Notes: generated by a model not told the origin, from the letters alone. A stretch of DNA of 32,000 nucleotides from an archaeon GW2011_AR10 (GCA_000830275.1 CP010424.1:180001-212000), one strand, 5' to 3'. Shown: positions 9,268 to 11,800, counted from the stretch's first letter. Translations and numbers: made by a program.

Positions 9268-9938
9268 TGCAAATGCACAAGGATGAAAAACTCTGGGACA
9301 AGGTATACGATGAATTCAGGGGAGAAAGGAGTTCAGTGTGGAGGGAGACTGCAACCCCGTTTTTTACGCAGAAAGCAGAATACTTGAGGCATTTGGGGTT
9401 AAGAAAAATTCTAGACGCGGGATGCGGGGACGGAAGAAACATCCTTGCTTTTGCAAAATACGGATTTAATGCAACAGGAACAGACATATCAGGTTTGGCT
9501 TTGAAAAAAGCCGAAGAATTATGCAGAAATTATCCAAATGCGGAATTCAAAAAAGAACCGCTTGAAAAACCAAGCTTCAAGCGCGAATCATTTGACGTGA
9601 TTGTATGTGATTTTGTCACAGCCCATCTTAAAGAAATAGAACTCATAACAAATAACTTCCATAAACTTCTCAAGAAGAATGGATACCTGCTTATTGAATT
9701 CACTTCTTACAAAGATCCGCACTGTGGTAAAGGGAAAAAAATAGGTGAAAGGGAGTTCCTGCAAAAAGGGTTTTATCTAAGGTTTTACACCATTAATCAA
9801 ATAGAAAAAATAATGGGCAAATTCAGGATATTGTGCATTGATTCAATATCCTACACGGATCCAGGCCATGGAACAGGCTACAACAGAAAAAAAAGACACC
9901 AGCACCACTCCTACTTCGTCTTTGCTCAAAAAAATTAA
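9267..9938 (+). CDS. Class I SAM-dependent methyltransferase (second, unrelated paralog)
   Basis: Motif I is ILDAGCGDGRNILAFA, followed by GTDIS and FDVIVCDFV. The start is GTG at 9264 or ATG at 9267, and either overlaps the upstream stop (9265-9267). Confidence 0.8.
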   Translation: MQMHKDEKLWDKVYDEFRGERSSVWRETATPFFTQKAEYLRHLGLRKILDAGCGDGRNILAFAKYGFNATGTDISGLALKKAEELCRNYPNAEFKKEPLEKPSFKRESFDVIVCDFVTAHLKEIELITNNFHKLLKKNGYLLIEFTSYKDPHCGKGKKIGEREFLQKGFYLRFYTINQIEKIMGKFRILCIDSISYTDPGHGTGYNRKKRHQHHSYFVFAQKN

Positions 9939-10039
9939 ACCCCCAAAAAGGAACCTTCCAGAACCAATGAGGGAACGCGGAGGACGTAACAAAGTTACGA
10001 AATCCGACGCGGCAAATGCCCGCCAAAAAAAGGGCAAGA

Positions 10040-10203
10040 CGCGGAGGACGAGATTCGAACTCGCGCTCCTGTGAAGGAACACGCTGACTGATGCAACTGC
10101 CACCCGATTTCTTTCTTTTGGGCAACTTACACTTTTCTTTCTTTTCAAAAGAAAGAAAAGGGCAGTTCCAGGCGTGCGCGTTAGACCACTCCGCCACCCC
10201 CGC
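10040..10203 (-). tRNA. tRNA-Ser(GGA) with an 80-nt intron at the canonical 37/38 position (intron 10086-10165)
   Basis: I folded this by hand. The acceptor is GCGGGGG/CCTCCGC, the D stem GCG/CGC, and the anticodon stem CACGC/GCGTG. The loop is CTGGAA|intron|A. There is a 15-nt variable arm (TCCT/AGGA), T arm GCGAG-TTCGAAT-CTCGT, and discriminator G. A BHB is consistent: C32-G35 pairs with TCAG in the intron, flanked by 3-nt bulges AA|C and TC|A. Confidence 0.85.
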
Positions 10204-10415
10204 AACAACTGTTACGTCAGTTGACACCGTGTGGCATCTTCGATGCCACGTGCTCGGCTCTTGTGAGCCTCGCAACAACTGAAGCCTCAGTTGACTAAAA
10301 CTTTGGCAACTGAATATGTTTAATTATTTCTTTCGCCAAAGTTTTACAAGGCGTGCCATTTTCAATGGCACTGGCTCGCCCTTATGGGTTCGCAACAATT
10401 GAGGTTCCAGTAGTA
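10204..10415 (-). repeat. Modular hairpin-rich leader upstream of tRNA-Ser(GGA): three [CAACTG-N6-CAGTTG hairpin + TTGCG] junctions, two 51-nt structured units, one 11-bp inverted repeat
   Basis: The junction hairpins are at 10206-10223 and 10276-10293, with a degenerate third at about 10396-10413. Unit hairpins are GTGGCATCTTCGATGCCAC (10231-10249) and GTGCCATTTTCAATGGCAC (10353-10371). The inverted repeat AAAACTTTGGC/GCCAAAGTTTT spans 10297-10345. Confidence 0.55.
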
Positions 10416-10443
10416 AAGAAATCAATTGGTAAAAGAATTTAAA

Positions 10444-11091
10444 TTAAAGGTTTTTGAGGGTTTGGACTCGTTTGGGAATGTCACCTGATTTTATTACGTA
10501 AGAGCCCGCTATCAGGATATCGGCTCCGGCTTCAACGCTTTTTTTGCCTGTTTCAGCGTTTATTCCTCCGTCAACCTGTATTTCGCAGTTCAAGCCCTCT
10601 TTGTCTATGGCTTCCCGAAGCAGTTTCACTTTTGAAAGGTTTTTTTCAATGAAGTTTTGGCCTCCGAAGCCTGCTTCAACTGTCATCACTAATGCAAGGT
10701 CAACTTTGGAAAGAAATGGTGAAATTTTTTTTGCAGAAATTTTGTTGTTGACAGCAATTCCGGCTCCCAAACCAAGGCCGCGGATTTCCTTAATTGTTTT
10801 TTTTGGGTTGTTGGAGGTTTCAACGTGGAAAGTTAAGGAATCTGCTCCATAACCCTTTAATTGATTAAAGTATTTTTCCGGCTGCTGAACCATGAGGTGA
10901 ACATCAAAGAAGAGTTTTGTTTTTGGCCTCAGTTTTTTTATTTCTTCAATTGGAACGCCTGAATTCGGAACATACTTGTTGTCCATTACGTCCCATTGAA
11001 TCATTTCTGGCTTTGCTTTCTCCAGCTGCGGAAGCCATTCCTTAACCTTTGAGAAGTCCGCTGAAAGAACTGATACTCCTACCTTTGCCAT
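10444..11091 (-). CDS. rpe: Ribulose-phosphate 3-epimerase
   Basis: SVLSADFSKV...DVMDNKYVPN...FDVHLMV...LTFHVE...GIAVN...LVMTVEAGFGGQNF...VDGGIN is the classic Rpe TIM-barrel motif set. ATG at 11089-11091 is used because the track start at 11094 is TTG. Confidence 0.9.
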   Translation of the reverse strand: MAKVGVSVLSADFSKVKEWLPQLEKAKPEMIQWDVMDNKYVPNSGVPIEEIKKLRPKTKLFFDVHLMVQQPEKYFNQLKGYGADSLTFHVETSNNPKKTIKEIRGLGLGAGIAVNNKISAKKISPFLSKVDLALVMTVEAGFGGQNFIEKNLSKVKLLREAIDKEGLNCEIQVDGGINAETGKKSVEAGADILIAGSYVIKSGDIPKRVQTLKNL

Positions 11092-11329
11092 CAAACCAGC
11101 CTGATTTTTTTAATTGGTTAAATCATCGTTGTACGAAAAATAATAAATAACTTCTTCCTAAAAATAGTTTGATGGAAAGGCAAAAGCAGGGCAAGAAGCG
11201 CAAATAACGCTGCAATAGTTTTACTACAACAACATTTTCGCTTCGCTTCAATGGTGTAGCGTGGAGGGAGAAATCCGAAGTCAGAAAAACCTAGGTTTTT
11301 CCGACACCGTTTCCTCCAAAAATTTTGTT

Positions 11330-11393
11330 AAATTTATAACCCGTTTCTTTGAAACGGGTTGGACGTTTGCTCCCTTCCGAGGAGCAGCTCGGA
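11330..11393. repeat. About 70-nt repeat, copy B: the 3' trailer of tRNA-Ser(UGA), with a perfect 10-bp hairpin plus an AT-rich tail
   Basis: On the minus strand, the tRNA 3' end is followed by TCCGAG-CTGCTC-CTCGGA, then AACCCGTTTC-AAA-GAAACGGGTT, then ATAAATTT. This copy is homologous to 6263-6334. Confidence 0.6.
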
Positions 11394-11591
11394 CGCGGAG
11401 GGAGAGATTCGAACTCCCGCTCGCCGAAGCGAACCGGCTTTCAAGGGAAACTGCGTCACTAATTTTGCCTGTTACGCTAAGCGCTTTGGCTTATCGAGGG
11501 TTTGAGTGAAATGAAAACCCTTTACTCTGCGTTACAGGCGGACACAATTGCCTCTCAAGGCCGGCGCGTTTAACCACTCCGCCACCTCCGC
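11394..11591 (-). tRNA. tRNA-Ser(UGA) with an intron of about 114 nt in the anticodon loop (11440-11553 if canonical 37/38)
   Basis: I folded this by hand. The acceptor is GCGGAGG/CCTCCGC, the D stem GCG/CGC, and the anticodon stem CCGGC/GCCGG. The loop begins CTTGAG. The variable arm is TCGC-TTCG-GCGA, the T arm GGGAG-TTCGAAT-CTCTC, and the discriminator is G. The exact splice position is ambiguous because CTTGA occurs at both junctions. Confidence 0.8.
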
Positions 11592-11738
11592 ATAAACGGA
11601 GAGCTCCGTTTACGAGCTGTACGTGTCCCATCTTCGATGGGACGGTAGTGCTTTCTCCGTTTACAAGGCGTGCCATCTTCAATGGCACTTGCTCGCCCTT
11701 TTAGGCTCGCAAAAAAGCGAAATCCGCCAAAATTTCGC
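11592..11738 (-). repeat. Hairpin-rich leader upstream of tRNA-Ser(UGA), homologous in architecture to 10204-10415
   Basis: The junction hairpin TAAACGGA-GAGC-TCCGTTTA is at 11593-11612. The unit hairpins are GTCCCATCTTCGATGGGAC (11625-11643) and GTGCCATCTTCAATGGCAC (11670-11688). The 51-nt unit 11661-11711 is 45/50 identical to 10345-10394. The inverted repeat GCGAAAT/ATTTCGC spans 11717-11738. Confidence 0.55.
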
Positions 11739-11800
11739 CAAAATAATGGTTTAGTTAAGTTTATATATTACTTTTGTTTAACACTTATTGGCCTTTTCTC

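Follow-up and report, generated by a model that had tools for sequence, protein, structure and literature searches.

Hairpin-rich repeats before an archaeal tRNA-Ser(GGA) gene are probably nested miniature insertion elements

Introduction

Why should the 5′ junction of a tRNA gene, together with the hairpin before it, be reiterated within the leader of that same gene? This question is raised by positions 10204-10415 of the 32,000-nt stretch of DNA analyzed here (the window; GCA_000830275.1 CP010424.1:180001-212000), whose source is a groundwater archaeon of the Iainarchaeota/Diapherotrites (DPANN). The repeats under study sit in the spacer between rpe and an intron-containing tRNA-Ser(GGA) gene, both on the minus strand. 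An earlier description of this DNA, made from the sequence alone and called here the sequence-only reading, took the reiterated hairpin and TT-GCG junction as a shared 5′ processing signal at which small RNA units might be released. Our analysis suggests that positions 10204-10415 are probably a nest of miniature, non-autonomous, hairpin-rich insertion elements in the transcribed rpe/tRNA-Ser(GGA) spacer, and that the reiterated junction is best explained as a repeated target-site duplication left by successive insertions.

Architecture of the tRNA-Ser(GGA) Leader

The motif GTCAACTG-N6-CAGTTGTTGCG occurs in two exact copies on the minus strand, GTCAACTGACGTAACAGTTGTTGCG at 10225-10201 and GTCAACTGAGGCTTCAGTTGTTGCG at 10295-10271, exactly where the sequence-only reading had placed them. 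This 25-nt pattern, with 19 specified bases, had two exact matches, compared with none in 100 dinucleotide shuffles. The degenerate third copy described earlier was also recovered (CTACTGGAACCTCAATTGTTGCG at 10413-10391, minus strand), and in the strains L004 and L005 it is an intact hairpin, CGACTGgaacctCAGTTGTTGCG (CGACTG/CAGTTG). Likewise, the perfect 11-bp inverted repeat with a 27-nt AT-rich loop was confirmed at 10297-10345. As for the two 51-nt units that had been proposed, their starts at 10393 and 10273 held, and both stretches have the form GCGA-hairpin-GAGC-NN followed by a 7-bp stem with a YGAAR loop, but the natural repeat is about 70 nt rather than 51. Comparison of the copies assigned the hairpin "before the junction" to the preceding unit, as its third hairpin (hp3). 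The unit redefined in this way measures about 62 nt plus an 8-9-nt repeat and reads GCGA-hp1-GAGC-NN-hp2 (GAA loop)-linker-hp3. Its first hairpin, hp1, is variable (0 to 5 bp), is closed by GCGA/GAGC and is not tRNA-like; two nucleotides separate it from hp2, a 7-bp stem whose closing Y-R pair leaves a GAA triloop; and hp3, a 5-7-bp stem after a short linker, often has the loop ACGYAA and is followed by TT. A second context of hp2 ("type b") has the flanks GYAYTAYC and ACRTAC. Units A and B are bounded by three copies of CA(G/A)TTGTT and are laid out as follows.

10396-10413, minus strand: remnant hairpin CTACTGgaacctCAATTG, whose 3′ arm, extended by TT, gives the first copy (10394-10401) of the repeated target CA(G/A)TTGTT
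10274-10393, minus strand: unit A, with hp1 at 10374-10393, hp2 at 10353-10371, the linker GCCTTGT, a nested 52-nt hairpin and hp3 at 10276-10293
10294-10345, minus strand: nested 52-nt insertion in unit A, an 11-bp inverted repeat with the 27-nt AT-rich loop (10308-10334)
10274-10282, minus strand: second target copy, TCAGTTGTT, at the end of unit A
10204-10273, minus strand: unit B, with hp1 at 10252-10273, hp2 at 10231-10249, ACGGTGT and hp3 at 10206-10223
10204-10211, minus strand: third target copy, CAGTTGTT, directly adjoining the tRNA +1

Single units folded more stably than their shuffles (z-scores of -2.5 to -5.2), and the folding of the 251-nt spacer was far more stable than that of shuffled sequence (z = -6.7).

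A Copy Inserted at the pop5 Stop Codon

One match of a metagenome scan, L033, is a free-standing copy. It lies at the 3′ end of pop5, a gene for an RNase P subunit, in a locus with the conserved operon order rpl15e - rpp30 - HD - pop5 - psmA - SBDS - rrp4. This locus very probably comes from the window's own population, since identical Pop5 and identical Rpe occur in the same samples, each on a contig longer than 1 Mb. In the sense of the pop5 mRNA it reads ...ATC AAA AAA CTG AAg (53 nt) AAAACTGAA ATAA, the 53-nt insert lying at the stop codon between 9-nt direct repeats, AAAACTGAA. The insert matches unit A at 48 of 49 positions, from CGAGCC to the end with the nested 52-nt hairpin excluded; that hairpin is not present in the pop5 copy, which starts exactly at the G of GCGAG. 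When the insert and one repeat are deleted, the open reading frame ends in ...VSGSIKKLK-stop, the exact C-terminus of the orthologue in L060 (113 aa, 49% identity), which carries no insert and gave no match to the covariance model (CM) built from a nine-module alignment and searched over 139 kb of related DNA. The insert has thus replaced the original stop codon, and Pop5 gains 18 C-terminal residues (L033 1233-1625, minus strand; L061 1501-1896). The 3′ end of the insert, CAACTGA, pairs with the right-hand target copy (TCAGTT) to form hp3. A near-identical copy at an unrelated locus, a flanking target duplication and a reconstructed empty site, as for miniature inverted-repeat transposable elements (MITEs), were therefore all found in this single case. 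Taken with the three target copies in the leader, the 9-nt repeats and the empty site at pop5 make target-site duplication the simplest explanation of the repeated junction.

On these grounds, a single element would measure about 53-62 nt (GCGA-hp1-GAGC-NN-hp2, with 7-8 bp and a GAA loop, then a linker and CAACTGA), and its insertion would duplicate an 8-9-nt target, the element 3′ end and the right-hand target copy forming hp3. The ancestral state would have been one hairpin and TT directly 5′ of the tRNA, CGACTGgaacctCAGTTG-TT-GCGGGGG; the CGACTGgaacctCAGTTG-TT form is still held by L004/L005 and by the relatives L053 and L054. Two successive insertions into (T)CAGTTGTT, immediately 5′ of the tRNA +1, would have produced units A and B and three copies of the hairpin-TT-GCG junction, in the order target (10394-10401), unit A, target (10274-10282), unit B, target (10204-10211), tRNA, and the 52-nt hairpin would have entered unit A later. 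The shared GCG would be the 5′ end of the element and, at the tRNA, its own G1-C2-G3. The same logic would cover two other repeats, namely the 9-nt direct repeats TAAACGGAG (two copies) between which a 42-nt hp2b core lies in the leader of a second tRNA-Ser gene, and the 10-11-nt repeat CTCGACC(C)TAC that bounds a copy in L023.

The pop5 copy also bears on the model of the sequence-only reading, in which the units are small stable RNAs cut at each TT-GCG by the RNase P that matures the tRNA. The transposed copy starts at the predicted cleavage site, GCG follows a U at most unit starts and at the tRNA +1, and the units fold stably. However, the type-a 5′ junction is absent in L052-L054, which retain only hp2-hp3-tRNA, hp1 has no tRNA-like character at its 0 to 5 bp, and inverted copies of the module, described below, could not yield the same RNA. 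No C/D box, H/ACA, tRNA-like or other Rfam signal was present in the units. Rfam searches of 9800-10800 and 11080-11800, run at gathering thresholds and at E ≤ 10, returned only tRNA at E ≤ 0.1 (next best 0.43) and nothing else at the gathering threshold, in agreement with the earlier statement that no RNA family can be assigned. We regard released small RNAs as very unlikely. Given the inverted copies, the differences between strains with identical rpe and the pop5 insertion with its 9-nt repeats, the reading of the reiterated junction as a shared processing signal is not supported.

An extension of the insertion reading would make the units an ultra-small mobile element that picks its target through its own 3′ end and maybe spreads through an RNA intermediate, as a prokaryotic analogue of short interspersed nuclear elements (SINEs) derived from a pre-tRNA leader. 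The two known targets, TCAGTTGTT at tRNA-Ser and TTCAGTTTT at pop5, are each complementary to CAACTGA. The transposed copy begins exactly at TT-GCG, where RNase P-type leader cleavage would free it. We consider this extension improbable; if true, such elements would have supplied archaeal tRNA genes with leaders, trailers, and introns.

Variation of the Leader Among Strains

Strains whose rpe genes are identical over 648/648 nt, with flanks at least 99.7% identical, have GGA leaders that can be aligned over only 58-70%. The leader of L001 and L003 lacks 36 nt, including hp1 of unit A, and carries the 27-nt loop (window 10308-10334) in reverse complement with three differences. That of L004 and L005 is a recombinant with the leader of the second tRNA-Ser gene, tRNA-Ser(UGA), and many assemblies end precisely at the GGA leader. 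At 10852-11082, L003 further differs in the 3′ part of the intron, has another 3′ exon, which contains a TTCAAAT T-loop, and carries an inverted trailer module ending in GGTAATAC. Nesting was found both in unit A, with its 52-nt hairpin, and in L025 and L028, where a unit lies within the loop of an hp2-like hairpin. In L059, the junction TTAATGCAATAAAT-GCGGA is tandemly duplicated (19 nt), which indicates that instability at this junction is recurrent.

The inverted loop gives rise to another explanation, in which the palindromes serve a dimeric protein as operators or recombination sites, in double-stranded or cruciform DNA, and the 27-nt loop is an invertible promoter of tRNA-Ser(GGA). Both loop orientations are seen within one population; the TATA-like loop core, ATGTTTAAT, recurs in a hairpin loop of L059 (3790-3850), where TTTAATA lies at -39 to -33 relative to the tRNA-Ser(GGA) +1; and modules occur independently of orientation, with strand-symmetric mismatch types. 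On the other hand, recombinase-mediated inversion needs a segment longer than 27 nt, the two loop versions differ at three positions, and no recombinase gene was found nearby. The stem bases vary yet stay complementary, which fits hairpin formation and not base-specific protein contacts. We consider DNA sites of this kind very unlikely. The loop is a possible proximal promoter that would flip between strains.

Covariation and Orientation of the Modules

In three relatives with 63-68% Rpe identity (L052, L053, and L054), the gene order is rpe, TATA box, GTATTAYC-hp2-ACATAC-GCGGTGT-hp3 and tRNA-Ser(GGA), and the stretch from module to tRNA gene contains no AT-rich box. No hp2 was found in the more distant L055-L057 (Rpe 55-58% identity), where a different T/A-rich hairpin precedes tRNA-Ser. 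In the alignment of nine modules, 96% of cells were paired and 12 of 14 pairs had changed on both sides, values attained by 0 of 500 shuffles; slid controls paired at 35-44%. RNAalifold gave the identical two helices. The covariance test for a structured leader RNA was therefore positive, and this covariation could partly reflect distinct element subfamilies instead of selection on structure. Unit B matched the CM with 56 bits at 10197-10258.

Inverted modules stand right after the discriminator base in the trailers of L054 (UGA and GGA), L003 (a strain of the window species), L052, L058 and L025, and within canonical-position introns in L025, L028, and L058; one inverted copy lies in a leader (L051). 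The CM E-values of the trailer and intron copies ranged from 1e-21 to 4e-4, with about 2e-3 for the L025 trailer copy, and three of the matches were independent of the training set. These copies retain their own non-palindromic motifs, so the pre-tRNA would carry the complements. Over 17 distinct copies, the stems comprise 207 Watson-Crick pairs, 5 G·T, 3 A·C and 3 other mismatches, and the ratio of G·U to A·C on the tRNA-sense strand is 4:4 (small counts). Genuine structured RNAs accept G·U much more readily than A·C. Two tests for a leader RNA were thus negative, as the orientation to the host transcript is not constant and G·U is not favored over A·C.

These data bear on a rival in which the modules are a functional cis-acting RNA of pre-tRNA-Ser, whose hairpins insulate the tRNA body and position RNase P and tRNase Z, and whose leader and trailer modules, in genes that have both, pair (GUAUUACC with GGUAAUAC) into a processing stem that closes the precursor. 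The placement of the modules agrees with such a role, with hp3 0-2 nt before +1, the inverted hp3′ 1 nt past the discriminator and a TATA box that precedes the GC-rich modules both in the window and in L052-L054. The covariation and the RNAalifold structure also agree, as do the minimum-free-energy folds of the L054 UGA, L054 GGA, and L003 precursors, which join leader to trailer motif (z of -4.4 to -8.6). Against it, inverted copies give complementary RNA, and no single factor could read both; trailer modules occur without a leader partner (L052 UGA and L058 UGA); an excess of G·U is lacking; the presence of modules differs among near-identical strains; the more distant L055-L057 have none; and the pop5 insertion shows a unit moving as DNA. 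A cis-acting RNA is thus unlikely, although it is the strongest of the rivals.

Several observations weigh against the insertion reading and are shared in part with the cis-acting RNA. The empty-site control rests on one insertion only, that at pop5, and the element ends vary among copies. Terminal inverted repeats are absent, since the 5′ end GCGAGTG... and the reverse-complemented 3′ end GCCTCAG... share GC only. Among the open reading frames examined for domains in the 32-kb window and its flanks, none pointed to a transposase, an integrase or a reverse transcriptase. Orientation is strongly biased, with leader copies tRNA-sense in 11 of 12 cases and intron and trailer copies antisense in 9/9 clear cases. 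Significant CM matches in the 139 kb lay only in or beside tRNA genes, except two copies known from the pattern search. The hp2-hp3-tRNA architecture, with 12/14 pairs covarying, is held in four genomes with the rpe gene order. Finally, the loops (CGAAG, ACGCAA) and single-stranded flanks (GTATTACC, ACRTAC) are better conserved than the stems, as is typical of functional structured nucleic acid. Together, tRNA linkage, orientation bias, and conserved loops and architecture suggest at least domestication or a tRNA-linked function.

The insertion reading nevertheless remains the one that we favor. Under it, related modules would have filled the leaders, trailers, and introns of relatives' tRNA genes (mostly tRNA-Ser) and been reshuffled between tRNA-Ser paralogues. 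If the preferred target adjoins acceptor-end sequence, the leader/trailer orientation rule follows, because that sequence would read alike at both ends of the tRNA gene, the 5′ end taken on the top strand and the 3′ end on the bottom strand. The hairpins may be tolerated, or even useful, as self-contained structures.

Promoters and Processing of the Leader

No AT-rich box was found in the 35 nt upstream of the tRNA, as had been claimed. TATA-like boxes of the GGA leader occur only within the AT-rich hairpin loop and at the following position.

10436-10448, minus strand: TATA-like box TTTAATTTAAATT overlapping the rpe stop codon, a candidate distal promoter

The TATA box of the relatives L052-L054 lies at the same place, upstream of the GC-rich modules. 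From either start site, the leader would retain at least hp3 of unit A and the whole of unit B. A long structured tRNA precursor, as proposed in the sequence-only reading, is thus very probable. The elements would be co-transcribed with the tRNA from the upstream TATA box and then lost with the leader through ribonucleoprotein (RNP) RNase P. For HARP, which the sequence-only reading had brought up, absence from DPANN is reported (PMC6380272). Diapherotrites, by contrast, are reported to have RNase P proteins (PMC4919917), and the window species carries genes for Pop5 and Rpp30.

A Second tRNA-Ser Gene with a Related Leader

A second tRNA-Ser gene, which had gone without notice in the sequence-only reading, has a leader made of the same modules.

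11394-11591, minus strand: tRNA-Ser(UGA), with an intron of about 113 nt
11593-11710, minus strand: UGA leader, with hp1 at 11691-11710, hp2a at 11670-11688, hp2b at 11625-11643 and hp3 at 11593-11612
11716-11769, minus strand: TATA-like AATATATAAAC (11759-11769) and a hairpin with a T-run (11716-11739), upstream of the UGA leader

The gene escapes default ARAGORN and Rfam and was found by ARAGORN with introns. Its leader reads GCGAGCCTAAAAGGGCGAGC-AA-GTGCCATTGAAGATGGCAC ... GTCCCATCGAAGATGGGAC ... TAAACGGAGctcTCCGTTTA-T-GCGGAGG, and the CM matched it with 75.8 bits at 11585-11652. The motif CATYGAARATG occurs four times in the 32-kb window (0.2 expected), always in the two tRNA-Ser leaders and on the tRNA strand.

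The deposited metagenome-assembled genome (MAG) GCA_018304495.1 (L005 9690-9700) is without 67 nt, including the entire 3′ exon of tRNA-Ser(UGA); the loss is either a true pseudogene or an assembly artefact at a repeat-rich locus.

Genomic Context and Further Observations

The genes that flank the GGA leader were identified as follows.

10444-11091, minus strand: rpe (ribulose-phosphate 3-epimerase), an open reading frame with Pfam PF00834, the gene upstream of the leader
10040-10203, minus strand: tRNA-Ser(GGA), Rfam RF00005 with 40.5 bits, also found with aragorn -i
10166-10203, 10086-10165 and 10040-10085, minus strand: exon 1, intron (80 nt) and exon 2 of tRNA-Ser(GGA)
9975-9986, minus strand: 12-nt direct repeat of the tRNA 3′ end, CGTCCTCCGCGT (other copy at 10039-10050), preceded by the hairpin CGTAACtttGTTACG

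The tRNA-Ser(GGA) gene is genuine by both its Rfam score and ARAGORN with introns allowed; the default mode of ARAGORN misses both tRNA-Ser genes, and the intron option recovers both. The gene order rpe to tRNA-Ser was conserved in 8 of the 9 related loci examined, the exception being L058. The unchanged Rpe protein is present on 24 Rifle-type groundwater contigs and in GCA_018304495.1, and the closest Rpe homologues carry Diapherotrites or Iainarchaeum annotation.

The repeat CGTCCTCCGCGT consists of the final 11 nt of tRNA-Ser(GGA) plus 1 nt and recurs 64 nt downstream beside a small hairpin; it may be a leftover of an older duplication or rearrangement at the tRNA 3′ end. A perfect T/A-rich hairpin in the GGA intron (window 10132-10160; CTTTTCTTTCTTTTgAAAAGAAAGAAAAG) resembles both the hairpins directly 5′ of tRNA-Ser in L055-L057 and the intron of the L059 tRNA-Ser(UGA) gene (L059 1880-1920). 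By their sequence likeness, hairpins of the CTTTTCTTTCTTTTgAAAAGAAAGAAAAG type form a putative second hairpin family common to leaders and introns.

Hairpin modules also occur in leaders of non-Ser tRNAs (Gly and one ambiguous call) in the Iainarchaeum MAG JAZDMJ01 (L028 1300-1464 and 4408-4470), so that the association in that genome is not confined to tRNA-Ser. These leaders have a 10-bp stem with a GAA triloop and a common GGCTCGCGAAAGGGCC hairpin adjoining +1. The type-b 5′ flank GTATTACCGCG (L054 2341-2351, the L003 trailer and others) is the complement of the universal 16S rRNA 530-loop sequence (GCCGCGGTAATAC), whose sense version the inverted trailer copies bear; the resemblance is probably a coincidence. 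In the genome and metagenome pattern scans, chance bacterial matches dominated (19/22 and 17/19, respectively), and viral contigs gave 0 matches to the pattern. The genes beside the L023 copy had no significant Pfam match, with two below threshold (E of about 0.005-0.008).

Several other identities for the units were examined and rejected. A K-turn formed by GCGA/GAGC has no 3-nt bulge, only tandem G·A pairs. As tRNA halves, split tRNAs or a cloverleaf, hp1-hp2-hp3 do not fit in arm sizes or loops, and the sole shared 7-mer is not significant. Excision through bulge-helix-bulge (BHB) motifs fails on junctions that are direct repeats, unable to pair, and the predicted folds have, by inspection, no BHB at TT-GCG. 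C/D-box and H/ACA small RNAs were dropped on the absence of the boxes and of any Rfam match. A CRISPR array was discarded on the irregular spacing of the hp2 copies (45 and 122 nt), and an integrase att-site remnant on duplicated tRNA pieces of just 7-12 nt and the lack of an integrase among the genes found. Horizontal transfer, argued from hp2 being better conserved than the tRNA, was withdrawn: the pattern search selects conserved hp2, and same-order relatives have diverged stems. Module swapping between L052 and L053 was unsupported (module 66% identical, compared with 76% for rpe and 54% for the trailer).

Discussion

The favored elements share features with several known systems. REP/BIME/REPIN sequences are marked by a conserved GTAG-type motif at the 5′ end, come with a RAYT gene and number tens to hundreds of copies outside genes. 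The elements described here resemble these and BOX elements in their short near-perfect hairpins, compensatory stem changes, two-orientation mosaics, tandem or nested arrays and co-transcription with neighboring genes. In contrast, they are archaeal, have the conserved flanks GTATTACC or GCGA/GAGC instead of a GTAG motif, make 9-bp target duplications, which REPs do not, and lie almost exclusively at tRNA gene ends and in introns. Rickettsia palindromic elements (RPE) reportedly insert into functional genes and are tolerated there, in work ascribed to Ogata et al. in 2000. The likeness lies in selfish palindromes tolerated within genes, as the pop5 copy is read through and adds its 18 residues to an RNase P subunit; however, RPE are bacterial, measure 100-150 bp and have no preference for tRNA ends, whereas the present elements measure about 53 nt. 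MITEs and the IS200/IS605-derived PATEs of archaea are similarly non-autonomous, carry subterminal hairpins and exist as multiple near-identical copies that are polymorphic for insertion. Unlike described MITEs, the present elements lack terminal inverted repeats and are several-fold smaller. They are also not of the IS200/IS605 type, because IS200/IS605 elements insert 3′ of a fixed tetra- or pentanucleotide and make no duplication, whereas a 9-bp duplication is present here.

The closest archaeal precedent is the mobile-element-driven disruption of archaeal tRNA genes, with intron gain and with split-tRNA leaders that resemble introns (Sugahara et al. 2012, PMC3293823). That case has in common with ours the tRNA hotspot, sequence shared between leader and intron, heterogeneity within one population and partial duplicates of tRNA ends, but it involves a 1.8-kb recombinase-encoding element, whereas we find 42-62-nt hairpin cassettes without coding capacity. 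The GGA and UGA leaders also resemble ordinary pre-tRNA 5′ leaders matured by RNP RNase P in lying between the TATA box and +1 and in having U at -1. Ordinary leaders are short and unstructured (for example, that of the tRNA-Leu in the window), whereas these are about 95-210 nt, with GC-rich hairpins up to -3. In the literature, no description was found of mobile elements this small nesting round tRNA genes in these archaea. The distinctive features of the present elements are their tiny size, the lack of terminal repeats in spite of a 9-bp duplication, the complementarity between 3′ end and target, and the niche at tRNA ends and in introns.

A GC-rich, covarying hairpin array beside a tRNA can thus be selfish DNA and yet look like a new structured RNA, which calls for caution in the discovery of noncoding RNAs from metagenomes. 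One copy has lengthened an RNase P protein subunit by 18 residues. Cassettes of the same kind in the leaders, trailers, and canonical-position introns of tRNA-Ser genes offer a testable route for the growth and exchange of archaeal tRNA introns and long leaders. The locus points to a class of insertion elements far below the size of described MITEs, in the DPANN, whose mobile elements are poorly known.

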